From a phage, in assembly GCA_024911895.1 (NCBI GenBank), contig GCA_024911895.1_3948.1: a DNA stretch of 64,000 bases, one strand, 5' to 3'. Positions 12,637 through 41,121 of the stretch are shown piece by piece. The translations under genes and the position numbers were made by a program. Numbering within the stretch: position 1 is the stretch's first letter; each line of letters opens with the position of its first letter. The notes under the pieces were generated by a model. That model had not been told where the DNA came from. It worked only from the letters and a program-made list of their open reading frames with translations, and ran no database searches.

Positions 12637-15003
12637 TTAATCGTAAATTGTTGTACCTTCTGGAACACATTTCACATCAAAGCCTAAAAACTTACTCACT
12701 TCGATAGGTGATACTTTATTCCAATCTAAGTGTGAAAGCAAGAAGTTTTCTTGTTTTCTTTTTGAAAGATAGTTTGTCAGCTTAATGACCATACGGTCAC
12801 CAGCTTTCTTAATTTTCTTGTACAGCTTTGTATCATTGTCAAGGCACTCTTTCAAAGTTTGCAACCGACTAATAGTGTAAGTGTATGCAAACGGTGCAGC
12901 AACGTATTGGATTTTACCAAACATTGCCTCAACAGCATCTTCATTACCTTCTAAGAAGATAGTTTTGTTTGTGTCTCGTGAATAGCAATAGCCACGAGAA
13001 ATCTTCCTGTTATTGAACGTAAAGTTTCTGGCAATAATCCAACTGCTTGTAAGGTCAAGGACACCATTCATATAGATACGTGTCATATACCTGTTATGAT
13101 TAATCCAATGAACATCAGTTAAGCTGTCGTTCAAGAGTTTCTCATCTACTTCAATCCAGTCTTCTGGTATCTTTTTCCAATTTGCTTTTCGGAAAACATA
13201 GACTGTCTTTTCAATGACATTGGCAACTGACTTAGCTACATCTTCTGGAGATGAGCAAAAACATTCGCCATCAACTGTGTCACCTACTGCCTTAATATAA
13301 AGCTGAGGCTCTTCAATCGTGTCTAAGTCTTCTGACACCTCTTTGTATGAAGCTACACCTTCTGCTGGAACAGCTTTCCAGAGTTTTACAACACCTCTTA
13401 CAGCTTCTTTACGCTGGTAATGGTGTTCCTTATCAGACATCTTCACAATCTTTAACAAGCTTTTATCAAGTTTGTGCAGATTGATTAGGTCGTCTAGCTC
13501 TTCCTCATTAGAGAATACAAAGACAATACCATTGTATCTGTGAAACAGACTTGACTCGCTGGCATAGTCTCGACATGCACCACGCAGAATCTGATTGCGT
13601 CCTACAGTCTTCTCAGTACCATTTTTATTGCGACGGTCATTTATAACAAACAAAAACTGTTCAATTTGACTTTTACGCATTGCGCCAAATATATTGAACA
13701 TACTTGCCTCTTGAGTGTAGGAAAGCGCTGTTGCACGAATCTTACTCTCTAAAGAGTTAAACTTAACATAAGCAACTGGATTATAAAGATAATCTACTTT
13801 AGGGATGTTGTTTCCGTTCCTATCAACCTTAATATTACCTTTACCATCACGTTCATAGATAACTGAGCCGTCTTCTGCGTAGATAATTCCACGACGAATG
13901 TTTAGTAATTCTTCTTCCAGAGAATCAAGCTTAACGCCTCCCCACTCTAGCTTTGGACACACAGCATTAAACATCTCTCGTGAGTTCAAACGTAACTCAG
14001 CATAAGCCTGTGCAGCATCCATGAGTGTAGGTTGGCTATTAACTTTCTTGATAACATCCTTTGTAATGGCTTCAGTTATCTTTTTAGTAGCCTCAATGAT
14101 AACATTTTTTGTCGTGTCATTCATCTGCAATGCTTCACGAGAAGCTGCAATAGCAACTGAACCAATAGGCATGTAGATGTTTACAAGGTCTACGCTCCTA
14201 CGGAAAAATTCTGGCAATACTTTGAAGAAATCATCTCCAAGTAATGCTTCCATGTTAACAGGGTAGGCAATGTTACCCATCACCACATTAAACTCTGTTC
14301 TGTTAGCGCCAGAACGCCAGCTTTGCTTATGAATCATGGCATCATAAACACCTTCTTCACGGGCAATGACGTTCATATCTGCTAATACATCGTCGTACTC
14401 AATATTACTTTCTGGTTTTACAGTGAAGTATGAGTACACATTCCCAGCTTCTTCAAAGAACTTTGAGATACGGTGGTCAGCAACTGCCACACGTACAGCT
14501 AAACCATTAGGTTCTTTTGTTGGGTTAGTTGTCAGCTTAGTTACTTGAGGGATACCATTCTCAAGATAAACAGAGTACTTATTAACAACACCGTCAACAT
14601 AGCTAGATACTGTGAATGACTGAGCAATTGCAAATGGTGACTTTGAGCCGATACCCATTGCACCAATGTAGTCATTAGAGTCATTCTTCGTAGAAGCTCC
14701 ATAGTTTAGGTACAAACTCATAACTTTATCATGAGTCAATCCAGTTCCAAAATCACGAACTTCGAAGTAAGGCTCAAAACGAGTAGGTAAATGCACATGG
14801 AATGGAATGTTCTCTTTTCCAGCTTCTTTCTGAGCATCTACTGCGTTACATGACAGTTCACGAATCACTGCCCTTTCTTTAAAGGTGTATACACCAGAAC
14901 TCAAAAGGCTGAACATCTCAGGTGTCATTGTAATCTGTGCTTGAGACGTCTCTAAAGAAGTTGAACTCTTAATCACTTCTGCGTGGTCATTTACCATGCG
15001 CAT
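12637..15003 (-). CDS. rIIA: rIIA-like protein with N-terminal GHKL/HATPase-like domain
   Basis: AVIRELSCNAVDA, EVRDFGTGL, SNDYIGAMGIGSKSPF match the T4 rIIA N-terminus as recalled; 788 aa. Confidence 0.75.
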   Translation of the reverse strand: MRMVNDHAEVIKSSTSLETSQAQITMTPEMFSLLSSGVYTFKERAVIRELSCNAVDAQKEAGKENIPFHVHLPTRFEPYFEVRDFGTGLTHDKVMSLYLNYGASTKNDSNDYIGAMGIGSKSPFAIAQSFTVSSYVDGVVNKYSVYLENGIPQVTKLTTNPTKEPNGLAVRVAVADHRISKFFEEAGNVYSYFTVKPESNIEYDDVLADMNVIAREEGVYDAMIHKQSWRSGANRTEFNVVMGNIAYPVNMEALLGDDFFKVLPEFFRRSVDLVNIYMPIGSVAIAASREALQMNDTTKNVIIEATKKITEAITKDVIKKVNSQPTLMDAAQAYAELRLNSREMFNAVCPKLEWGGVKLDSLEEELLNIRRGIIYAEDGSVIYERDGKGNIKVDRNGNNIPKVDYLYNPVAYVKFNSLESKIRATALSYTQEASMFNIFGAMRKSQIEQFLFVINDRRNKNGTEKTVGRNQILRGACRDYASESSLFHRYNGIVFVFSNEEELDDLINLHKLDKSLLKIVKMSDKEHHYQRKEAVRGVVKLWKAVPAEGVASYKEVSEDLDTIEEPQLYIKAVGDTVDGECFCSSPEDVAKSVANVIEKTVYVFRKANWKKIPEDWIEVDEKLLNDSLTDVHWINHNRYMTRIYMNGVLDLTSSWIIARNFTFNNRKISRGYCYSRDTNKTIFLEGNEDAVEAMFGKIQYVAAPFAYTYTISRLQTLKECLDNDTKLYKKIKKAGDRMVIKLTNYLSKRKQENFLLSHLDWNKVSPIEVSKFLGFDVKCVPEGTTIYD

Positions 15004-15532: not shown

Positions 15533-15564
15533 TCCAGAAATTAAAAAGGCTCCCGTAGGAGCCT
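15533..15564 (-). terminator. intrinsic terminator after the Nampt-like gene (stem AGGCTCC/GGAGCCT, UACG loop, U-run)
   Basis: plus AGGCTCC-CGTA-GGAGCCT at 15547..15564; minus-strand T-run at 15533..15546. Confidence 0.6.
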
Positions 15565-15578
15565 CTTATCATATACTT

Positions 15579-17360
15579 TTAAAGCTGCTTGTCAATATTA
15601 TTTCGAATATCACCAAGAGTTGTGTAACCGAACTGCTCAGAGTCGCTAAAGACTAAACGTAAAGCACAAGCTGGATGCTCAAGTGCATCTGCAAAACTCT
15701 GGAATCCATAGCCGTCTACAGCTTTCAGACTCTCACCATCCCACATAGGGGCTACACCACCAAAAGCAGACTTCTTAACACCACTATCTGTTTTAGGGTC
15801 TTTTGCAAGCATAATCTCTTTACCACCAATGCTTGCAAGAGTTGCTTTGACAGCAAATGCAAAGGTGTCACGAGTCATGTACTGGTAAGTGTAAGAACCC
15901 ACACCAAACACTACGTTAGAGCTTGCAAAACCCATTTCATACAAACGCTTCAGGATTTCGTTTGCACGTTCCAACGTGATAGAGTCACCATAAATAAGGC
16001 CAATGTGCTCATCCAGCACCTTAAAGCCTTTAGAGTTGATAGTTCCTCCAAAGATGTTATACAGTGTTTTGATAGCTCCATCAATCTCCGCTACAGGACG
16101 TGTTACAACGTTTGCAGAACCAACCATATAAGCATTTTTCAACAGCACTGTATCAGCAACTTCAAAGTCTTCTCTGTCAACAACCATTTCGTAGCCTTCT
16201 GACAGTAGCCATCCAGCAATACCATAACTGATATTTTCAAGCTTCATGTTCAGAACAGCATTCAACATCGTGTCGCTGGCTTCAAGCTTGCTTAAGTGTT
16301 CGTAATAAGCCTTTTTAGCACACTCTAAATGGATTGCTTTGTATCCTGCGACAATATGTACAGGGTCTCCAGAATCAGGACGAATTACCAGTTTACCATC
16401 ACGTCCCATAATCTCTTTGCGGAGTTCTGGTAATATGACTGATACAGTCCTCCAGAAATTATAAGTATCTGAGACAACACTTGCAATACCAGTTGGGTAA
16501 GTCTCTGTTAAAAAACGACGGAAGGTTTGTAACTCACCTTTAAAACGTCTTTCATCTTCAATCAACTCATTACCACCTTCCCAAGCAATGTTTGCACACA
16601 TTACAGAGTGTTCAGTGGCTGGTACAGAGCTACCAATATCAGAGATTGGGTAGGACTGTCCATAGATACGTTTAGCTGTATACACAGCAGGAAAACTGTC
16701 AGTTCCTTTAAAGCTTGTTAAGTGACCTACAGCGTTAAATGCATCATCAGTAAAGCCGGACATGCCGCGCATAGCAAAGTCATGGCACTGATAAGGTAAA
16801 TGCAAGTCGTTGTCACAAGTAAGGTCAGCCCACTTCTTACAAATGCGTTTGTAATGTAATGCAATAGTTGCAATGGTGCAAGCCTTCCAAATCTCAGCAG
16901 AGAAAGCATCTTCCAGATAACCTGCTACCCAATGGAAACCTGAAACAGTGTTCTGGAAGACAATCATTGGGACACGCATCGGGACAACTGTGCCTTCTTC
17001 TACAGCGTATACTTCAACTGGTAGGTAACCTAAGTCGTGAAGTGCTTCCCAATGCTCTCGACCGATAGCATCTTTACCCAGAACACCATTCATGACTTCT
17101 AAGATTTCGTCAATTGCTTCTTTTTTATCACGTTCAAAGAAAGTGGCGTTCCAGTGGTCTATCAGGTAATCTTTAACAAAACGTTGAATACCAAAAGCCA
17201 CTACACCATCAATTACTAAGGGGCTGTTAAACCACTTATCACTACGTGGTGTCAGGTTCAACATAAGATATTGCGTAGCATCTGGATACTGATATATATG
17301 TGATGCCTTGTAAGCATCTGCATTAAGACCTGCTGGTACTGCGTAAAGTGACTTACTCAT
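15579..17360 (-). CDS. nicotinamide phosphoribosyltransferase-family protein (Nampt-like; could instead be a nicotinamide-ADPR transferase-type enzyme)
   Basis: 593 aa; overall Nampt-like composition and length class; adjacent to a Prs-like gene; family call from memory of phage NadV-type proteins. Confidence 0.6.
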   Translation of the reverse strand: MSKSLYAVPAGLNADAYKASHIYQYPDATQYLMLNLTPRSDKWFNSPLVIDGVVAFGIQRFVKDYLIDHWNATFFERDKKEAIDEILEVMNGVLGKDAIGREHWEALHDLGYLPVEVYAVEEGTVVPMRVPMIVFQNTVSGFHWVAGYLEDAFSAEIWKACTIATIALHYKRICKKWADLTCDNDLHLPYQCHDFAMRGMSGFTDDAFNAVGHLTSFKGTDSFPAVYTAKRIYGQSYPISDIGSSVPATEHSVMCANIAWEGGNELIEDERRFKGELQTFRRFLTETYPTGIASVVSDTYNFWRTVSVILPELRKEIMGRDGKLVIRPDSGDPVHIVAGYKAIHLECAKKAYYEHLSKLEASDTMLNAVLNMKLENISYGIAGWLLSEGYEMVVDREDFEVADTVLLKNAYMVGSANVVTRPVAEIDGAIKTLYNIFGGTINSKGFKVLDEHIGLIYGDSITLERANEILKRLYEMGFASSNVVFGVGSYTYQYMTRDTFAFAVKATLASIGGKEIMLAKDPKTDSGVKKSAFGGVAPMWDGESLKAVDGYGFQSFADALEHPACALRLVFSDSEQFGYTTLGDIRNNIDKQL

Positions 17361-17376
17361 ATTTTATCTCTCTCTC

Positions 17377-17868
17377 TTAGTTATGTCTTGCAAACTCACC
17401 ATGAAGTTCTATTCGCTTTTTAATTACAGCTTCTTTTGCTTCTTCTACCGTTTTAAATCTTCCACAAAAGTATTCTTTATGGTAAAGCATGACTCTTGCT
17501 TTGTAAAGACCTGTTTGTTTACAAAAACTTACACCCTTCACACCAGTTTTATTATTCTTGTATATACCCCTATTCCTCTGATTTTGTGACTTTGTGCTAA
17601 GTCTTAAATTCTCCAACTTATTATTAGGTTTATCAAGGTCTATGTGGTCTATCTCATATCCACTTGGTATCTCACCTCCAGACATAATCCATGCAATATT
17701 ATGTGCATAGTACCTCTTCTTATTTATCTGGACTTGGATATAACCCTTCTTAGACCTTGTGCCAGCCACATTACCAGCAATAGCGGTACTGCAAAGGGTT
17801 ACTCTCCAAATTAATAAACCTGTATCTGGCTCATATATTAGGTATCTTTCAAAATAACCCTTATTCAT
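17377..17868 (-). CDS. HNH homing endonuclease with C-terminal AP2 DNA-binding domain
   Basis: HNH region GYEIDHIDLDKPNNKLENLRL; AP2-like GVKGVSF...GRFKTVEEAKEAV...HGEFA; inserted between the Nampt-like and Prs-like genes. Confidence 0.7.
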   Translation of the reverse strand: MNKGYFERYLIYEPDTGLLIWRVTLCSTAIAGNVAGTRSKKGYIQVQINKKRYYAHNIAWIMSGGEIPSGYEIDHIDLDKPNNKLENLRLSTKSQNQRNRGIYKNNKTGVKGVSFCKQTGLYKARVMLYHKEYFCGRFKTVEEAKEAVIKKRIELHGEFARHN

Positions 17869-17876
17869 ACTGTTAC

Positions 17877-18758
17877 CTAATCAATGTTTGCTACAGTAAC
17901 TTGACCATAATGTGTTAAGCCACGGTCTTTAGCTTCCCCTAAAGAGTTTGTAGTGTAAATGTGGTCAATACCATTGTCAAGAAGGTTTTCAACACCTTTA
18001 GAGAAAATACCATGTGTTACATAGAGTTCCACACGTTTTGCACCTGCTTCACGAAGATGTTTAGCTGCCTCTACGAATGTTCGACCACCATCACAGATAT
18101 CATCAAGAATCATGACAGTTTTATCTGTCAAATCAACATCATCAAGGATTCGCATACCAGTTATTTCACCAGTCTTAAGGTTGCGTACTTTAGACATTGT
18201 GATATATGGTTTATCCACCTCTTTAGCAGTCTCTGCAATCTTCTTAGCAGCACCTGCATCTGGGGCTACTAAGTAGTCAACCAGAGGGTCATTTGCATAG
18301 TGGACTGCAATCTCCTTTTGAGGAATACTCTGGAAGCAATTGAAAAGGTTATCTGGAACGTAACTGTGAGGGTCAACTGCACAGACTGCACCAAATCCCA
18401 TTGCATTTACCTGTTTAGAAAAAACCTTCAAAGCTGCTGCGTCGCCTTTAAACATGTGACGGTCATATCGTGCATTTGGTAAGTAGTAAAAGATGACAGT
18501 CTTTAAAGCATAATCATGAGGAATTAAATCATCAATTGCTTCTTTAGCAAGCGCCACAGCAAACAATGTGTCTTTATCATAACCTTTTACAATCATAATC
18601 ACATTGTTGATGGATGATGCAGCATAAGCAGTAAAATCAACAAACTCTGGTGAAAAGTGTCCACCAATCTCACCAGAAGGGAATTGGATGATGTTAAACT
18701 CTTCTTCATGAGTTCCTTTAGTTGGTGAATGAACTGTAACACGTATAGATGTTTTCAT
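17877..18758 (-). CDS. ribose-phosphate pyrophosphokinase-family protein (Prs-like; could instead be an ADPR-pyrophosphate synthetase-type enzyme); start moved to the ATG at 18758
   Basis: PRPP-binding loop VMILDDICDGGRT, VDPH, APDAGA; GA-rich RBS GAGAGAGAAA; the ORF-track start at 18773 is TTG. Confidence 0.6.
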   Translation of the reverse strand: MKTSIRVTVHSPTKGTHEEEFNIIQFPSGEIGGHFSPEFVDFTAYAASSINNVIMIVKGYDKDTLFAVALAKEAIDDLIPHDYALKTVIFYYLPNARYDRHMFKGDAAALKVFSKQVNAMGFGAVCAVDPHSYVPDNLFNCFQSIPQKEIAVHYANDPLVDYLVAPDAGAAKKIAETAKEVDKPYITMSKVRNLKTGEITGMRILDDVDLTDKTVMILDDICDGGRTFVEAAKHLREAGAKRVELYVTHGIFSKGVENLLDNGIDHIYTTNSLGEAKDRGLTHYGQVTVANID

Positions 18759-18769
18759 AATTTTCTCTC

Positions 18770-19048
18770 TCAATCAAAAGTTACGTTAGTTACTGCCATT
18801 GCAGACTTGCATTTTACAGGGTCTACAACGTGATAAAGTACACTACAGTTTCCTGTGCTATCTGGCACAGGCTTTACCCATTGCTGCTTGACAGTTGGTT
18901 CTCCTAAGTCTTTGTAAGAACCATCTGTAAAGTTGTTTACCATCTCAAGTGCAATTGGCTCTGGAACATGACCACGTATCATGTACATTTCACAACCATT
19001 ACCACCTTCACTGACTAATGGTAAAATCTCCCACTTTTCTTTAGCCAT
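18770..19048 (-). CDS. hypothetical protein (92 aa)
   Basis: ORF with ATG start. Confidence 0.45.
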   Translation of the reverse strand: MAKEKWEILPLVSEGGNGCEMYMIRGHVPEPIALEMVNNFTDGSYKDLGEPTVKQQWVKPVPDSTGNCSVLYHVVDPVKCKSAMAVTNVTFD

Positions 19049-19556
19049 TGTAAGTTGCCCTATAAACTATCTCGAACTTCAACAGGAGAGATATTGCCAA
19101 ATCTGTATAGTCGTTGTCAAGCACATCTGGCATATTATTTTTGATATATCTCTCTTGCTCTTCATAGGTCATCTTAGGGGTACTTAAAAGACTATCTCCT
19201 TGCTTCTGGTTATCAGCTTTAGTCTGAATAAACCAGTTTGCACAGTGATGTTCACCACCTTTTGTAACAGGTTTGTGATGACCTAATGTGAAGGATTGAC
19301 TGCCTGTGTATCTGCAAAGTTTATTGAGTACTGTAATGGTGTTCTTCACAACAAAACATTCATACAGATTATCTATGGTGTAGTGTGGGTAATATCGAAA
19401 TAATGCTCTTTCACGAGTACTCTCACGATTCCAGAGAATCATGTGATTGGAGTTGGAAGGGTCGTATTGGTGGGAGTCAATGAACTCTTGACGTTCCTCA
19501 AAGCTGAGTCTTAAAACTGACATTGCAGCCGAACGTTTCAGGTTTGACAGATACAT
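19041..19556 (-). CDS. hypothetical protein with HNH-like motif (possible HNH endonuclease)
   Basis: LGHHKPVTKGGEHHCANW resembles the HH..GG..N core of HNH nucleases. Confidence 0.35.
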   Translation of the reverse strand: MYLSNLKRSAAMSVLRLSFEERQEFIDSHQYDPSNSNHMILWNRESTRERALFRYYPHYTIDNLYECFVVKNTITVLNKLCRYTGSQSFTLGHHKPVTKGGEHHCANWFIQTKADNQKQGDSLLSTPKMTYEEQERYIKNNMPDVLDNDYTDLAISLLLKFEIVYRATYNG

Positions 19557-19607
19557 ATTATCTCCAAAATAAAAAGGGAACCTTTACAGTTCCCTTATAG
19601 TATCTGC

Positions 19608-22103: not shown

Positions 22104-24248
22104 TTACATAGAAACTCTGTCACGAATCTCAGCGATTTTTGCATCATTCATTCGTGATTCACCTTTAATCTTAGTCCATCCAAGATAACCACACACCCTG
22201 TTAATCACAGAGATATCATGTGAATGGCAAACCTCACATTCTTCAACATCAGCCTTTGGTCTGTTACCACAATGCTCACAGATTGCTAAGTCAAAGTTAA
22301 GTCCCTGATAAAAACCTTTCAACATGCCTCTTGTAATACAGCTTTTAAGTGCTGATAAGTTTTCTGGGTTAGCCACCCTTACATACTGGATTCTGCCACC
22401 TCTACAGATATGGAAGAATGGCTCTTCTAAGTCCTGCTTCTCAAATGGTGAGATGTCTGCTGCAACATTCATATGAAAACTGTTTGTGAAGTATTCCTTG
22501 TCAGAAACACCTTTAATAACGCCAAACATATCTCTGAACTGTTTTAGTTGAGTTCCACAAAGTGATTCTGCTGGAGTACCATAGACGGCATATAAGAAGC
22601 CATCTTCGTTTTTAAACTCTTCAGTTTTCATGTTGATGTATGCCAGAACATCGTATGCAAAACTATAGCTTCCAACTTCATGAAGTCGTTTACCCTCAGC
22701 AAGAACAGATAACTCATCAAGCGCAGTAACCCCAAAAGAAGCTGTGAAAGACTTCACGATATCCCAACCAACCTTGTCAGTAGGTTTCTTAGTCCCTTTG
22801 TACAGACCACCTTGTGTGAATGCAAGAGGGTTAGAACTTGCTGGCATATTAGCAATCATTTCGTAGCGTTTCTTGTGGAAGTTGCGAATCATCTCTAGGT
22901 GCTTATCAAGCTCTTTCCAGAAATCTAAACCATTCTCTTTAGAATACTGGTAAATCATTGGTAAGTTCAAAGATACAGCACCAATGTTAGCACGACCAAC
23001 GTAGAACTCTTCTCCACCCTCATTAAGATATGGAGATAAAAAGGCTCTGCAACCCATCGGTGAAATTACCTTACCAGAACGCTCAAAAGCCTCTGCTACA
23101 GCGCCATGACCAGACACACTTAAGAAATCTGGGTACATTGCTTTAGAGCAACACTCGATGGCTTTACTGTACAGGTGACCTTGACAGATATTTTCATCAT
23201 GTCTCTTCTGGTCATAAATATAAACCAGTTTAGGGAATACAACAGGTTTTTTGCTCTTGCCTTGTCCATTCATACGAACATCTAGGAGAGTACTTGCAAT
23301 CATGTATTGGAGTCGATTATCCTCATTAGACATATCTGAGTCAAGTAAACCAAATGTTAAAGTTGTGAATGCAAAATCACCACGGCTACAAGGTACGGTA
23401 TTTAGTTTCATCTCAAGTGACTGAAAACCCTGAGTCAGTTCAATTTGTAACTGCTCCATTACATAATTGTGGTAATGCTCTTTAGGAATACCATAAGATG
23501 ATGCTTTCTCAGCATGATAGCGTAGAGACTTCTTAGCATACGGTACAAGTACCTTATCAATCTCTGCTAAAGTAAAACCACCAAATTGCTGTGCAGTTGC
23601 TGAAAGTACTACGTCACCAATAACCTGCAACGCTGACAGTACAGATTTAGGTTCACAGTACTCAATGCCGGACATTTCAAAGCCACCTTTTAGTACTTTA
23701 CCAATGTCAAACAGGCAACAGTTAATACCACCAAAAATCAGGTCTCTCAAATCGTGGATATAGATAAAGCCTTTCTCAATGGCTTCAAGTTCCTCTGGTG
23801 TTAGATGATACTGTTTAAAGATTTCTTTAGTCAGATAACCACGGATAATTGAACCTTTCGTAGAAATTAAACTACTGTCAAAGTTAGCATTTTCACGGTC
23901 ACCTAAGAAGAGTGTATCTTTAGTCTTCTGGTAGAGTTCATCCCAATTTTGAGCAACCTCTTTACGGTAATTTCTGTATGTTGAGTAAGACTCATAAATC
24001 TCGTGATTGACCTCTGCCAAAGCACCTTCAACAATACTGTGAATATCATTTACCGAAATTAGTAAATTATTCTGTTTAGTAGATTTTACCAGAATCCTCA
24101 TAAATGCTGACTCAAGAGCTTGAGTAACATCTGGTGGGAGTTCTTTATACCCAACCCTATTAGCTGACTTTGTGACTGCTGCTAAAACTTTTTTGATATC
24201 AGGTTCTTCGAGTGAGCCATTCTTTTTAATAATCTGTACTTTGTTCAT
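22104..24248 (-). CDS. nrdD: anaerobic (class III) ribonucleoside-triphosphate reductase
   Basis: 714 aa; C-terminal glycyl-radical motif RVCGYLG; Cys cluster CEHCGN..CEVCH. Confidence 0.8.
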   Translation of the reverse strand: MNKVQIIKKNGSLEEPDIKKVLAAVTKSANRVGYKELPPDVTQALESAFMRILVKSTKQNNLLISVNDIHSIVEGALAEVNHEIYESYSTYRNYRKEVAQNWDELYQKTKDTLFLGDRENANFDSSLISTKGSIIRGYLTKEIFKQYHLTPEELEAIEKGFIYIHDLRDLIFGGINCCLFDIGKVLKGGFEMSGIEYCEPKSVLSALQVIGDVVLSATAQQFGGFTLAEIDKVLVPYAKKSLRYHAEKASSYGIPKEHYHNYVMEQLQIELTQGFQSLEMKLNTVPCSRGDFAFTTLTFGLLDSDMSNEDNRLQYMIASTLLDVRMNGQGKSKKPVVFPKLVYIYDQKRHDENICQGHLYSKAIECCSKAMYPDFLSVSGHGAVAEAFERSGKVISPMGCRAFLSPYLNEGGEEFYVGRANIGAVSLNLPMIYQYSKENGLDFWKELDKHLEMIRNFHKKRYEMIANMPASSNPLAFTQGGLYKGTKKPTDKVGWDIVKSFTASFGVTALDELSVLAEGKRLHEVGSYSFAYDVLAYINMKTEEFKNEDGFLYAVYGTPAESLCGTQLKQFRDMFGVIKGVSDKEYFTNSFHMNVAADISPFEKQDLEEPFFHICRGGRIQYVRVANPENLSALKSCITRGMLKGFYQGLNFDLAICEHCGNRPKADVEECEVCHSHDISVINRVCGYLGWTKIKGESRMNDAKIAEIRDRVSM

Positions 24249-30040: not shown

Positions 30041-30541
30041 TCAAGTACAATTTGCTTTCATTACCTTATGGATTCTTTTTTCAGCATCTTCATAAGTTTC
30101 TTTAGTAATAAACTTAATTGCTGCAATATTGGCATTGTAGAAGAGTCTGAGCTTCGAGTCAATCCTTTTTGTCATTACATCGAACTTATGTTGAAGGTTT
30201 GCTTCACCATAAACTAGGCCACCTTTTGTGTAGTAGGTTTGAATAATGTAAAAGTCAAAAAATTCTTTTCCAAAGCTCTCAATATCTTTTTTAATATACT
30301 CAGAAGAAGTCTCATAAGTCATCCAATCACTTTCCTTAGTGACTACCTTCTTCCGAGTCTTCCCAGCAACTTTTCTTTTAGTCACACTATTAAGCTGTTT
30401 CTTACCCAAATAGTACTGTCCAGTCTTTTTGCAGTACACTAGGTAGACAAAGCCAAAGTGCTTTGCTGGGTCAACTTCACCACATAGTGAAACCCAATGT
30501 CCATATTCAGGGCAATTGCCAAAACCTTTTATTTTTCTCAT
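30041..30541 (-). CDS. GIY-YIG-like domain protein, possible homing endonuclease
   Basis: GFVYLVYCKKTGQYYLGKK resembles GIY..(10)..YIG. Confidence 0.3.
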   Translation of the reverse strand: MRKIKGFGNCPEYGHWVSLCGEVDPAKHFGFVYLVYCKKTGQYYLGKKQLNSVTKRKVAGKTRKKVVTKESDWMTYETSSEYIKKDIESFGKEFFDFYIIQTYYTKGGLVYGEANLQHKFDVMTKRIDSKLRLFYNANIAAIKFITKETYEDAEKRIHKVMKANCT

Positions 30542-31065
30542 TCATCACCTTTATTAGCAAACTCTTTGTGTAAACGTTGACGTTCCCTATTTACAACCTC
30601 TGCTGCTTCATCAATAGTGTCATAGTTGCCGAAGAAGTAGACCCTCTTCTTAAAAGTTATCTGTGTAGACCACTTACCATACTGTTTTTTGTAGTACACA
30701 CCTTTAACACCTGATTTATTGTTCTTATTGAGCAACCTATTACATTGGTTCTCTGATAACGTACATGCCCTAAGATTTACCCAGCGATTGTCTAGTGTTA
30801 CATGATTTTTATGGTCAACACACTCAGGTAGGTATCCATCCATATACAGAACGGCTAGGGTATGTGCATAATAGCCCTTACCAAACAAATAAATTCTGGT
30901 GTACCCTCTTAAGTTTGTACCTGCAACAGAGCCAATTTTTGTGTGTCTAGCAGATTTCTTAATCCAAGTAAAGACCCCTGTTTCGGGGTCATAATGTAGG
31001 TACTCTTTAAGAGTTTGTTGAGTTAACATTTGGTGTCCACCCATACTTATCAAAAGTAAAATCAT
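30538..31065 (-). CDS. HNH homing endonuclease with AP2 domain (true start probably internal, near 31029-31044)
   Basis: VDHKNHVTLDNRWVNLRACTLSEN; AP2-like GVKGVYY...GNYDTIDEAAEVV...HKEFA; overlaps the 3' end of the exonuclease gene. Confidence 0.65.
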   Translation of the reverse strand: MILLLISMGGHQMLTQQTLKEYLHYDPETGVFTWIKKSARHTKIGSVAGTNLRGYTRIYLFGKGYYAHTLAVLYMDGYLPECVDHKNHVTLDNRWVNLRACTLSENQCNRLLNKNNKSGVKGVYYKKQYGKWSTQITFKKRVYFFGNYDTIDEAAEVVNRERQRLHKEFANKGDE

Positions 31066-37679: not shown

Positions 37680-37936
37680 GTAAGCCTCTTTTAAGTAACT
37701 ATTAAGTTTTAATCTTTTATCTTAACGTATTCTATACGTTATACTTTAAAGCTTTTTAAAAGCTATTAAATAATCTTTTAAGAGTTTTAAAGTATCTGTA
37801 TAGTTAAACTGTTAAGTAACCTTTTAAGTAAAAACCCACTTCGCAAAGATTAACACCTTGTCAAGTACATTGTCAACTTGCTTTTTATAATTTTTTGCAG
37901 TAATGTATGAGGTTAATGATTTTAGAGGGAGTAAAA
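37680..37936. promoter_or_regulatory. AT-rich divergent intergenic region between the leftward and rightward gene blocks, carrying copies of motifs from the 1-1000 region (TCTGTATAG, CTGTTAAG, CTTTTAAG)
   Basis: read directly; GAGGGAG RBS before the polymerase ATG at 37937. Confidence 0.5.
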
Positions 37937-40636
37937 ATGGAAAACGTAGATTTTAAAAACTTACATTTAGTTGGTGATACAGAAACTGATGGTTTACTCC
38001 TTGAGTTCACTAAAGTTCACGTAATGGCTTTCGCAGATTATAAATCTGACGATGAAGAGCCACCTGTATGGGTCTTTACAGATGAGCCTATCCTCGGTCA
38101 CAAGTACACTAAGTACATTAAGGGTGGTTTACGTGAAGGTGTTGAGTTTGCGTTAAAGGCAAAACGACTTTGTATCCATAACGGCCTCGGTTATGACTGG
38201 TGGGTCTTCAATCACATTGCACCGGATTTATGGAACTTTGATAATCCAAAATGTAAGCCGTGGAGTAATTTCTTTCAGGATTCTCTTATCCAGTCTCGTG
38301 TTCAGTGGATGGATAGACCAACTCCAAAGGGTTATAAAGGTGCTCATGGTTTGGCTGCATGGGGTGCTCGTGTTGGTGTTCGTAAACCAGAGATTGAACA
38401 TTGGGGTGTGTGGAATGCAGAAATCTTCACTCGTGTTGTAGAAGATATCCGTATTAACGCCAAAACTAAACGGGCACTTGATAATGAATATCTCAAGCTT
38501 AAGAAGTGTGGTATAGACACTTATGAAACTTACATGCGAGCTAAAGAAACATCTTTCTGGATGAGTCAACAGGCTATCAATGGCTGGAAAGCTGATAAAG
38601 AGCTTATGGAGTTCCATGTAAAGGAACTTGACAAGTTGACTAATGAGCTTGCTTCAGAGGTTGAACCACATCTACCTCCAACTATTAAGACCAAAGGTAA
38701 AGTTACTGGAGAAGAATTTGCAAGAGCTTGGAATGAGTATGTTGAAACATTTGGTCATGCAGATGGACTGAAGAGAATCACCAAGTATCCTAAGACAAAG
38801 TATCGTCAGCAGGTACGTAACGGTGAGATGCAGACATATGAAATCAAGCCATTTGGTAAGCCAACTACAAAGATTTTTAACATTGAAAAGAGAAATTGCT
38901 ATACACCAACCAACTCTGTAACTGGTGAAGAGTACAAGGAAGGTTTTGTAGCAATGAAGGATGCTCGTGCAATTTGCAATGAGTTGAATGCAAAGATTGG
39001 TAAGAAATGCAAAGACTGGAAGCCAGTAAAAACAGTTAAAACTGTGAAGTACTATAACAGTCATGTTGTTAACCACTTTGAGCTTGAGTCAAGTCGCTAC
39101 ACAGGTTTGATTGATGCACCATATACACCAATTGAGTTCGAAGTTTCTCGTATGACTCAGGTAGCAGTTGTTAAAGACTACTTGAAATCAGTTGGTTGGA
39201 TTCCAGATGACTGGAACTACAAGAAAGACTCAGATGGTCGTCCTGTTAAGGTTTGTCGTTTCAAAGACAACAAAAAGATGATTACCAAGCATCCTAAATG
39301 GCAGGAGATGGTTGAACGGTGTGGTTTGAGTTATGTTGAACATGAAGGTGTCCAGTACATTGAGCATAACTGGTCTGTGAAGAAGTACACAGATTTGCTT
39401 GAGCCTTGCTTAATCCGTACTTCACCAAAACTTACTGAATCATCTTATGATACGATTGAAGGTGAGCTTGGACAGAAGATTGCTAAGTACTATACTTTGA
39501 TGCACCGACGCAGAACTATTGAGAACTCAAAGGATGATGAAAAAGGTTGGTTGAACCAGATTCGTCCTGATGGTCGACTTAGTGCTGGTGCAATGGTGTT
39601 TGGTACTTCAACTGGACGTATGACACAATATGGTATTGTAAACGTACCGTCTGGTGCTGCTGTCTATGGAGCACCTATGAGGGAGGTATGGACTTGTGAA
39701 GATGGTACAGATATCATCTCCGTAGACCAAAACTCAGCACAGCTAGTTCTCCTTTGTAACTTTATGGGTGATGAAGACTTCACTAAAGCGGTAACTGAGG
39801 GTAAAGAGTCAGTAGAGTTCACTAAGCAAGAGGATGGCAGATACTACTGTAAGCATCTTGATAAGTATCTTAACCCAGAAACTGACAAGTATCTTCGTTA
39901 TGATGCTGAGAATGACCTCTATGAAGTCTATACAGGGACTGATGCACATACATTGAACAGTATTTACTTTGGTCTTAACAAAGAAGAGGATATTATTCTT
40001 TGTAGGGAGACACAGGATGAGGAACTTCTTCACGAGATTACAAAAGGTCGTAAGAAGAGCAAAAATGGCATCTACGCCCTGTTATTTGGAGCCGGAGATG
40101 AGAAGTTTGCGAAAACTATCAAGGCATCATCTACGGAAGAGGGTGCGTTGACTAAACAAACTTACTTTGTGCGTCTACCTAAGATTAAAAAACTGCTTGA
40201 TAGATTAGAGGAAGACTTCAAAGCAACTAAGAAAGCACTTGAAGAGGTTTTCGGAAAAACTTCTGCAATTGCCAAAGGTGGCTATATCAAAGTTGCTGGA
40301 GCGTGGTTATGGTGTAAATCTCCACATAAGTTATTGAATTACACACTTATGGGCAGTGAGGCGCAGGTGCAGAATGAGGGTATTAACTTGGCTAACAGAG
40401 AGTTAACAGAGCGCAAGCTTACAGTTCTAAATGGTAGGAAGCCTGCTATTGGTGCTAGGTGGGTCTGTAGTTACCACGATGAGGTCTCTTTAGAGGTTCC
40501 AACCAAAGATGTACCTGATGTTAAGGAGATTATTGATAGAATGTATGGTCAAGCATCAAAAAATCTTGGATTAAAGAGTAAGACGCTTGTTACAGGCACT
40601 GGTAAGGTAGGTAAGACATGGTACGCCGTACACTAA
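37937..40636 (+). CDS. DNA polymerase, family A (with 3'-5' exonuclease domain)
   Basis: exo motif LVGDTETDGL; motif A-like ISVDQNSAQLVLL; motif B RKKSKNGIYALLFGAG; motif C VCSYHDEVSLE. Confidence 0.8.
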   Translation: MENVDFKNLHLVGDTETDGLLLEFTKVHVMAFADYKSDDEEPPVWVFTDEPILGHKYTKYIKGGLREGVEFALKAKRLCIHNGLGYDWWVFNHIAPDLWNFDNPKCKPWSNFFQDSLIQSRVQWMDRPTPKGYKGAHGLAAWGARVGVRKPEIEHWGVWNAEIFTRVVEDIRINAKTKRALDNEYLKLKKCGIDTYETYMRAKETSFWMSQQAINGWKADKELMEFHVKELDKLTNELASEVEPHLPPTIKTKGKVTGEEFARAWNEYVETFGHADGLKRITKYPKTKYRQQVRNGEMQTYEIKPFGKPTTKIFNIEKRNCYTPTNSVTGEEYKEGFVAMKDARAICNELNAKIGKKCKDWKPVKTVKTVKYYNSHVVNHFELESSRYTGLIDAPYTPIEFEVSRMTQVAVVKDYLKSVGWIPDDWNYKKDSDGRPVKVCRFKDNKKMITKHPKWQEMVERCGLSYVEHEGVQYIEHNWSVKKYTDLLEPCLIRTSPKLTESSYDTIEGELGQKIAKYYTLMHRRRTIENSKDDEKGWLNQIRPDGRLSAGAMVFGTSTGRMTQYGIVNVPSGAAVYGAPMREVWTCEDGTDIISVDQNSAQLVLLCNFMGDEDFTKAVTEGKESVEFTKQEDGRYYCKHLDKYLNPETDKYLRYDAENDLYEVYTGTDAHTLNSIYFGLNKEEDIILCRETQDEELLHEITKGRKKSKNGIYALLFGAGDEKFAKTIKASSTEEGALTKQTYFVRLPKIKKLLDRLEEDFKATKKALEEVFGKTSAIAKGGYIKVAGAWLWCKSPHKLLNYTLMGSEAQVQNEGINLANRELTERKLTVLNGRKPAIGARWVCSYHDEVSLEVPTKDVPDVKEIIDRMYGQASKNLGLKSKTLVTGTGKVGKTWYAVH

Positions 40637-41121
40637 CACTTCAAGATTACAAGGATAATTTTATTTATGACCCCGACAAAGGGGTCTTCTACAACAAGTA
40701 TGACAGGAATAGACAAGCTAAAGCTGGACAGATTGCAGGAGGAAGTGATACTTATGGTTACAAAGTACTTAAATTCAAAGGTGTCGTAATAAAAGTTCAT
40801 CACCTCGTTTGGTGGTTCGAACATGGTTACAAACCCACTAAGATGATAGACCACATTGATGGTAACAGAAGTAATAATCATATCTCTAATCTTAGGGAGG
40901 CTGATAAGTATGGAAACGCCCAAAACAGGGTTAAGCAGACAGCTAACAAGTCAGGTTACAAGGGTGTGCATTATTTTAAAGACTGCAATAAATGGAGGGC
41001 TGCTATAACATGCAGAGGTAAAAGGACATCACTTGGTTTATTTGACACACCAGAAGAAGCCCATAAAGCTTACTGTGAAGCTGCTGTAAAACTCCACGGA
41101 GAGTTTGCAAAACTAAGTTGA
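40618..41121 (+). CDS. HNH homing endonuclease with AP2 domain
   Basis: IDHIDGNRSNNHISNLREA; AP2-like GYKGVHY...GLFDTPEEAHKAY...HGEFA; overlaps the polymerase 3' end. Confidence 0.7.
   Translation: MVRRTLTLQDYKDNFIYDPDKGVFYNKYDRNRQAKAGQIAGGSDTYGYKVLKFKGVVIKVHHLVWWFEHGYKPTKMIDHIDGNRSNNHISNLREADKYGNAQNRVKQTANKSGYKGVHYFKDCNKWRAAITCRGKRTSLGLFDTPEEAHKAYCEAAVKLHGEFAKLS

Follow-up and report, generated by a model that had tools for sequence, protein, structure and literature searches.

A predicted NARP1 locus in a Felixounavirus genome, carrying a homing endonuclease gene between adps and namat

NARP1, a nicotinamide adenine dinucleotide (NAD+) reconstitution pathway consisting of an ADP-ribose pyrophosphate synthetase (Adps) and a nicotinamide ADP-ribose transferase (Namat), was found in the Felixounavirus Bas63, where genes 79-80 encode the two enzymes (10.1101/2024.02.11.579819). 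Without these genes, Bas63 plated about 20-fold lower on cells carrying the defence system SIR2-HerA and its NAD+ buffering was lost; ADP-ribose pyrophosphate (ADPR-PP) was seen by mass spectrometry only with wild-type Bas63 and the defence system together, and the wild-type phage still escaped SIR2-HerA in a pncC nadR double-deletion host (10.1101/2024.02.11.579819). In vitro, Adps of the Bacillus phage SPbetaL1 made ADPR-PP from ADP-ribose (ADPR) and ATP and gave no product from a ribose-phosphate substrate and ATP, and its Namat preferred ADPR-PP over phosphoribosyl pyrophosphate (PRPP), made NAD+, and yielded only NAD+ when the substrates were mixed (10.1101/2024.02.11.579819). NARP1 activity has been published in vitro for SPbetaL1, DyoEdafos, and P. 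foliorum proteins and, by mass spectrometry, in Bas63-infected cells. Here, we describe two neighbouring genes of the same families in a phage DNA stretch of 64,000 nucleotides (GenBank assembly GCA_024911895.1, contig GCA_024911895.1_3948.1; the whole stretch is called the window), which had been predicted from its letters to hold a NAD+ reconstitution module split by an endonuclease gene. On the basis of orthology and signature residues, we put the probability that this locus is NARP1 in a Felixounavirus, and that the route from ADPR through ADPR-PP to NAD+ applies to it, at about 90%.

Orthology and signature residues of the enzyme pair

The window is a Felixounavirus genome. A 4.6-kb region of it matched 260 phage records, nearly all of them Felixounavirus and other Ounavirinae from Escherichia coli, Salmonella, Shigella, and Citrobacter, with nucleotide identities mostly of 90-96%; to many Felixounavirus members the identity was about 94-96% over the 4.6 kb. 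Both enzyme genes were observed as intact open reading frames (ORFs) on the minus strand, and their family matches, which lie far beyond chance, bore out the assignments of the original prediction. The adps product matched Pfam Pribosyltran (2.7e-11) and Pribosyl_synth (1.8e-9) and the PHROG family "ribose-phosphate pyrophosphokinase" (1.6e-96); the namat product matched Pfam NAPRTase (5.5e-34) and NAMPT_N and the PHROG family "nicotinamide phosphoribosyl transferase" (1.3e-200). The two genes were collinear with Bas63 79-80 in the same nrdG...rIIA neighbourhood, in a backbone otherwise about 93% identical. Adps shared 79% of its residues with the syntenic Bas63_0079 (both 293 aa), and Namat 96% with Bas63_0080 over the full length (593 aa each). 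In the Adps clade, 97% of the genes have a Namat nearby, that is, within 10 genes (10.1101/2024.02.11.579819), and in the window namat starts 519 nt downstream of adps with one gene between them.

According to a structural study of 2026, Namat is distinguished from nicotinamide phosphoribosyltransferase (Nampt) by an adenine "selectivity clamp" of two elements, a variable loop (selectivity-clamp loop, SCL) and a helix (selectivity-clamp helix, SCH), the latter with the signature GSX-Phi-X-Phi-X-Phi-TRD and aromatics at positions 3 and 7 (PMC12774641). The window Namat has GSYTYQYMTRD at this helix, and SPbetaL1 Namat has GSFTYQYNTRD, whereas the Nampts HdNadV (GAQTYQRNTRD) and Xcc (Xanthomonas; GGALLQKVDRD) do not carry the signature. 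In the published model of Bas63 Namat, the fourth SCL residue, which follows the lysine, stacks on the adenine (PMC12774641); the window SCL is identical and would supply the stacking residue as in Bas63. The catalytic residues F195, R198, D221, H251, R327, and D329 were invariant among 42 homologues, and the core matched F189, R192, D215, R306, and the catalytic histidine of SPbetaL1 Namat. The fold agreed with this, as an AlphaFold2 model of the window Namat (mean predicted local distance difference test, pLDDT, 94) had as its best PDB matches the "Namat" entries 9w5x/9w5w (E 1e-53; template-modelling score 0.95, target-normalised), followed by H. ducreyi NadV and human NAMPT.

Adps retained, by alignment, the catalytic residues of ribose-phosphate pyrophosphokinase (Prs), namely R97, D99, R100, D129, H131, K190, R192, and the DD...D.G.T loop, in which D219, D220, D223, G225, and T227 were invariant among Adps homologues and E. 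coli Prs. With SPbetaL1 Adps, the enzyme assayed biochemically, it shares 34% identity, and its K190 aligns with K162 of that enzyme. Mutation of SPbetaL1 K162, which corresponds to K197 of B. subtilis Prs, abolishes activity (10.1101/2024.02.11.579819). The NCBIfam Prs equivalog models gave the window Adps 41-102 bits against cut-offs of 296-536 (the best being 102 vs. 296), and the PRK01259 subfamily model gave 88 against 297; the sole model passed was the broad TIGR01251 subfamily (117 vs. 113). By these scores, the adps product is a Prs-family protein and not a canonical Prs. The original prediction had also pointed to DGGRT in the ribose-phosphate loop, against DTGGT of housekeeping Prs. 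The difference itself is real (E. coli Prs has DDMIDTGGT), but it does not mark Adps enzymes, since the aligned loop reads DDLSSFGGT in SPbetaL1 Adps, DDLSSYGGT in FADO, and DDLCDAGGT in chromosomal Cronobacter homologues, and DGGRT was discarded as a diagnostic. Neither Pfam nor NCBIfam holds a curated Adps- or Namat-specific hidden Markov model, and the NadV-type model PRK09198 absorbs Namat; in the PDB there is no Adps structure, and the best match of the window Adps there was Sulfolobus Prs (9e-19).

The comparison of profiles and predicted structures that the original prediction had proposed thus placed adps outside the Prs equivalogs and namat closest to the Namat structures. In every feature of NARP1 that can be read from sequence the locus agrees with that system, and by the same features it is neither NARP2/Nampt, NARP1-AP, nor a housekeeping Prs. 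Because of the syntenic orthology to Bas63 79-80 and the adenine-clamp signature, we identify the locus as NARP1, and the choice that had been left between two chemistries falls, as far as sequence can settle it, on the ADPR-based one. In the mechanism we propose, NAD+-depleting defence (SIR2-HerA, DSR1/2, type I Thoeris, SEFIR, and similar systems) would split NAD+ to ADP-ribose and nicotinamide, Adps would pyrophosphorylate ADP-ribose at C1'' with ATP to give ADPR-PP, and Namat would join ADPR-PP and nicotinamide directly to NAD+, so that PRPP and the host nicotinamide mononucleotide (NMN) adenylyltransferases would not be needed. The clamp, made of the loop TPRSDKW and the helix GSYTYQYMTRD, would give Namat its preference for ADPR-PP over PRPP. 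We infer these reactions and the anti-defence phenotype from the published experiments on orthologues and homologues.

Considering that the Pfam, PHROG, and NCBIfam names are all those of Prs and Nampt, and that nadV of FelixO1 has been so annotated since 2003, the pair could be read as classical salvage. PRPP formed from ribose-5-phosphate by the Prs-like enzyme would then be combined with nicotinamide by the Nampt-like enzyme to yield NMN (SPbetaL1 Namat is able to do so in vitro), and host NadR/PncC would complete NAD+. This is very unlikely. Bas63 did not need pncC and nadR to counter SIR2-HerA, SPbetaL1 Adps used ADPR and not the ribose-phosphate substrate, and Namat offered both substrates gave NAD+ alone; moreover, the window Namat bears the clamp that true Nampts do not have, and its Adps stays far under the cut-offs of the Prs equivalog models.

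The homing endonuclease gene between adps and namat

The HNH-AP2 gene that had been predicted between the two enzyme genes encodes a complete protein with Pfam HNH_3 (2e-18, 1-46/46) and AP2 (4.6e-4, 1-53/54) domains and a match to phrog_99 (3.6e-67). We observed it in 62 of about 260 related phage records (~24%), in one place each and invariably between adps and namat. FelixO1 has it at the same site, and in Bas63 and SeKF_63 the site is empty. The empty site consists of a stop codon, a hairpin GGGGCT-(TGAA/TCCA)-AGCCCC, ATTTT, GAGAGAGA, and ATG, and the occupied site of TAG, 8 nt, the HNH ORF, TAA, and GAGAGAGAGAT-AAAAT-ATG. By this comparison, the element replaced the intergenic hairpin and left the namat ribosome-binding site in place; the site GAGAGAGA is kept in endonuclease-bearing alleles, FelixO1 included. 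The GC-rich hairpin and ATTTT of the empty site, found at 13629-13673 of the Bas63 locus (L005) and at 2432-2476 of the SeKF_63 locus (L006), may attenuate transcription within the NARP1 operon or influence the stability of its RNA.

The flanks of the site were compared in 33 loci, of which 5 came from annotated phage records (the window included) and 28 from IMG/VR (L013-L040); 9 were occupied and 24 empty. The adps stop codon was TAG in 9/9 occupied loci and TAA or TGA in 24/24 empty ones, and base 5 of namat was wholly linked to occupancy, with G (AGT, Ser2) in occupied and C (ACT/TCT) in empty loci. Bases 18 and 58-59 of namat showed nearly perfect linkage, and no occupancy-linked sites were found in the last 360 nt of adps. 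The linkage spans both of the Adps alleles described below and different genera (FelixO1; phiSUSP1, L035; Moogle, L036). This pattern suggests a homing endonuclease gene spreading laterally with a short co-conversion tract that reaches about 60 nt into namat; the enzyme would be expected to cut either at the hairpin between the two genes or in the 5' part of namat. By its domains, its polymorphism, and the linkage of its flanks, the HNH-AP2 gene is a selfish, free-standing homing endonuclease gene. Nothing in the sequence suggests that it takes part in NAD+ chemistry, and in the proposed mechanism it would stand outside the two reactions.

Two HNH-AP2 paralogues, 39% and 34% identical to this protein, occur elsewhere in the window. 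The gene of the first (175 aa) adjoins a SegE-type GIY-YIG endonuclease gene (166 aa), and the two together occupy 30041..31065 on the minus strand, beside an exonuclease gene; the 3' end of the DNA polymerase ORF (37907..40636) runs into the gene of the second (167 aa; 40618..41121, plus strand). The GIY-YIG gene (30041..30541) carries the PHROG label "NAD synthetase" and was considered as a third NAD gene, and this was ruled out by its identity as an endonuclease.

Could the endonuclease gene have uncoupled the pair, through polarity on namat or by upsetting the stoichiometry, so that the module is decaying and no longer protective? The intergenic hairpin of the empty allele is lost, the spacing of adps and namat is 10-fold larger, and the published experiments cover no endonuclease-bearing allele, Bas63 being without the gene. 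Yet neither enzyme ORF is truncated, no catalytic residue is missing, the namat ribosome-binding site is preserved, and no terminator was predicted in or after the endonuclease gene except weak hairpins within its ORF. Endonuclease-bearing alleles moreover persist at about 24% across three genera, FelixO1 among them, with namat 96-98% conserved. We therefore regard uncoupling as highly improbable.

Lineage features of the enzymes and the surrounding genes

The N-terminal part of Adps was found to be dimorphic. Nucleotide identity between the window and Bas63 fell from about 93% in the backbone to 59-81% over the first ~600 nt of adps, and the 5' edge of the divergent region coincides with the start codon. 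At the protein level, the identity of the two types, here called W and F, was 58% in residues 1-60, rose to about 73% in residues 61-180, and reached about 97% in residues 181-293. The window shares type W with SeKF_63, pinkbiff, and a 791-member cluster (P0121), and type F occurs in FelixO1, Bas63, and BPS15Q2. Across the phage database Adps identity was bimodal, with 155 records at 90% or above, 94 at 60-80%, and 4 between. By these identities, two deeply diverged Adps N-domain alleles exist within Felixounavirus. Among the 33 loci the alleles showed no link with endonuclease occupancy, as W and F each occur with and without the gene.

Several points weigh against the identification as NARP1. 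The window has the W-type Adps, whereas Bas63, the phage studied experimentally, and FelixO1 have the F type, which is 58-73% identical over residues 1-180; this difference is the main residual uncertainty for the chemistry of the window. Bas63 Adps could not be purified, and the in vitro chemistry was done with SPbetaL1 proteins (10.1101/2024.02.11.579819), which share just 34% (Adps) and about 38% (Namat) of their residues with those of the window. In vitro, SPbetaL1 Namat turns PRPP into NMN if no ADPR-PP is present (PMC12774641; 10.1101/2024.02.11.579819), and some classical salvage activity may therefore persist. Finally, with the endonuclease gene in place, adps and namat are ~519 nt apart instead of about 48, and the intergenic hairpin is gone. 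On the other side, Adps enzymes only about 30-35% identical to either the W or the F allele show the same activity.

The window Namat is about 100 aa longer than Nampt and Namat proteins (593 vs. 482-496 aa), as the original prediction had noticed; this length is a feature of the Ounavirinae lineage and not a trait of Namat, since SPbetaL1 Namat has 491 aa. The excess is due to two insertions relative to a core of about 495 aa, for which SPbetaL1 Namat and enterobacterial chromosomal homologues served as the reference. Insertion A is at a site of variable length (21 aa vs. 7 in the 495-aa forms and up to 45 in others). At site B the window has 89 aa vs. 17 in core forms, that is, an inserted subdomain of 72 aa, which was found only in 254 Ounavirinae-type records (42-100% identity) and in metagenomic relatives whose overall identity went as low as about 46%. 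Both the full model and a model of this segment alone (pLDDT 87) showed it with confidence as a small alpha/beta unit, and no fold relative was detectable. Insertion B is not discussed in PMC12774641, from whose text the word "insertion" is absent, and neither this subdomain nor the Adps N-domain dimorphism is discussed in the NARP1 papers (10.1101/2024.02.11.579819; PMC12774641). Both the subdomain and the two N-domain alleles, which may be ancient and recombine beside a nearly invariant C-terminal domain, could be further products of the arms race, with a role in regulation, partner binding, or evasion of a NARP1-targeting host factor, a suggestion that we consider rather unlikely; on the alternative view, they would be neutral decoration.

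The coordinates of the locus are collected in table 1. The two terminator-like hairpins at its ends delimit a putative unit of five genes, orf171-orf92-adps-HNH-namat. The terminator that had been predicted after the pair, with its UACG loop, was recovered as AAGAGGCTCC-TACG-GGAGCCTTTT followed by a T-run on the minus strand. Taken mechanically, the adps ORF would begin with a TTG (18773); we placed the start at the ATG of position 18758 because it is preceded by the ribosome-binding site GAGAGAGAAAA and because an 882-nt gene is annotated in Bas63, FelixO1, and SeKF_63. The small gene orf92 is kept in Bas63 (0078), FelixO1, and SeKF_63 and is not conserved in one more distant relative. The product of orf171, conserved in all Felixounavirus genomes examined, weakly resembles HNH endonucleases (phrog_2214, 1.4e-4) and contains an HH...N motif. 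Scans for tRNA genes and Rfam families across the window gave no matches.

Table 1. Features of the predicted NARP1 locus in the window
Feature	Position	Strand	Basis or remark
Terminator-like hairpin upstream of orf171, 5' limit of the putative five-gene unit	19574..19596	-	Hairpin prediction
orf171, phrog_3500, function unassigned	19041..19556	-	First gene past the upstream terminator
orf92, phrog_4726, function unassigned	18770..19048	-	Directly upstream of adps; stop 11 nt before the adps ATG
adps, Prs-family, 293 aa, first NARP1 enzyme (predicted ADP-ribose pyrophosphate synthetase)	17877..18758	-	ORF, Pfam, synteny with Bas63_0079
Adps N-terminal domain, residues 1-180, W allele of the dimorphic region	18219..18758	-	Identity drop vs. 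Bas63
Adps ribose-phosphate (PRPP-type) loop VMILDDICDGGRT, residues 215-227	18078..18116	-	Alignment with Adps homologues and E. coli Prs
HNH-AP2 free-standing homing endonuclease gene, 163 aa	17377..17868	-	Pfam, phrog_99, occupancy polymorphism
Flank-marker positions	17361..17376, 17869..17879, namat 5' end 17302..17360		Linked to occupancy
namat, Nampt-family, 593 aa, second NARP1 enzyme (predicted nicotinamide ADP-ribose transferase)	15579..17360	-	Orthology, AlphaFold2 model
Namat selectivity-clamp loop TPRSDKWFNSPL, residues 37-48	17217..17252	-	Identical to Bas63
Namat insertion A, variable-length site, residues ~258-278	16527..16589	-	21 aa vs. 7 in 495-aa forms, up to 45 in others
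Namat insertion B, compact alpha/beta subdomain, residues ~342-427	16080..16337	-	Ounavirinae-type phages
Namat selectivity-clamp helix GSYTYQYMTRD, residues 488-498	15867..15899	-	Fits the published signature
Intrinsic-terminator-like hairpin, UACG loop and T-run	15544..15567	-	12 nt past the namat stop

The neighbours of the locus are nrdA/B, nrdD, and nrdG upstream and rIIA downstream, which is the Felix O1 layout. The position just downstream of these ribonucleotide reductase genes would suit a nucleotide-supply module, in which the Prs-like enzyme raises PRPP for phage nucleotide synthesis, works together with the reductases encoded next to it, and NAD+ is incidental. We find this scarcely conceivable, as 97% of Adps-clade genes adjoin Namat and not nucleotide-synthesis genes, the tested Adps did not behave as a Prs, and the same pair occurs in unrelated phages with no nrd neighbours, e.g., SPbetaL1 and FADO. 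The two phages also differ in an endonuclease gene within nrdD, which is one uninterrupted ORF of 714 aa in the window (22104..24248, minus strand) and in the Bas63 annotation (L005:6631-9517) is divided in two by a homing endonuclease gene. An extra gene of about 345 nt (0081, L005:15509-15853), which lies between namat and the orf111 homologue in Bas63 and in several other relatives, is missing from the window.

Comparison with known systems

The system itself is already known: this locus is a further copy of NARP1 in its type genus, and the FelixO1 reference genome already has, with annotation, a pair split by the endonuclease gene. Beyond the original prediction, the chemistry was resolved by orthology and the clamp, DGGRT was demoted, the endonuclease gene was characterised, and two unexplained lineage features were added. 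An endonuclease gene with co-converted flanks inside an anti-defence operon, a dimorphic Adps N-domain, and an orphan Namat subdomain leave the picture of NARP1 unchanged. There is a value for annotation, as in hundreds of Felix O1-type genomes, several of them used in typing and therapy, the two genes are still labelled "ribose-phosphate pyrophosphokinase" and "nicotinamide phosphoribosyltransferase". Read as NARP1, these genes would be a broad counter-defence against NAD+-depleting immunity, which bears on the prediction of host range.

NARP2 and bona fide Nampts (KVP40 NadV, Haemophilus ducreyi NadV 9ke8, human NAMPT) share their fold and their nicotinamide/ribose-phosphate catalytic core with the window Namat. 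In contrast, they use PRPP, pair with Nmnat instead of Adps, and lack the two aromatics in the SCH equivalent, whereas the window locus has both the clamp and an Adps partner, although no search for Nmnat was made across the whole genome. NARP1-AP, with the Macro-domain phosphatase Adpp, and the mycobacteriophage DyoEdafos (RyDEP) have a third gene within the adps-namat operon, as the window does, but the third gene of the window is an HNH-AP2 endonuclease gene with no ADPR-related domain. Neither a Macro phosphatase nor a RyR glycosidase was found among the neighbours by Pfam and NCBIfam, and orf92, orf171, and orf111 have no Pfam match.

Pairs of this kind also occur on enterobacterial chromosomes. 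In Cronobacter sakazakii (L010:5085-8360), an adps-like gene (285 aa) and a namat-like gene (496 aa, with the Namat clamp signature) stand together, and the enterobacterial pair has a divergently oriented gene for an NrtR-type Nudix/winged-helix regulator beside it. Members of the NrtR-type regulator family respond to ADP-ribose. This arrangement suggests a regulated cellular NARP1.

SPbetaL1, whose Namat is known from PDB entries 9w5w and 9w5x, has in common with the window the gene order, the Namat fold, the catalytic residues, the clamp signature, and the catalytic lysine of Adps. Its Namat, however, is without insertions A and B, the stacking residue of its SCL is Arg40 where the window has Lys42-Trp43, and its Adps loop is SSFGGT where the window has CDGGRT. 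The closest experimentally studied relative is Bas63 (Escherichia phage JohannRWettstein, MZ501086), of the same genus and with the same order nrdG ... orf171, orf92, adps, namat ... rIIA; its SCL and SCH are identical to those of the window and the C-terminal domain of its Adps is 98% identical. It differs in a 45-nt hairpin spacer in place of the 163-aa HNH-AP2 gene, in the other Adps N-domain allele, and in gene 0081 (345 nt) after namat. In its gene arrangement, the locus is matched by ORF127-ORF128-nadV of Salmonella phage FelixO1 (NC_005282), which has the same three genes, the same HNH site, and the endonuclease-linked flank markers, with an HNH gene about 90% identical at the nucleotide level; FelixO1 differs in its F-type Adps N-domain and in an annotation that is still that of classical salvage.

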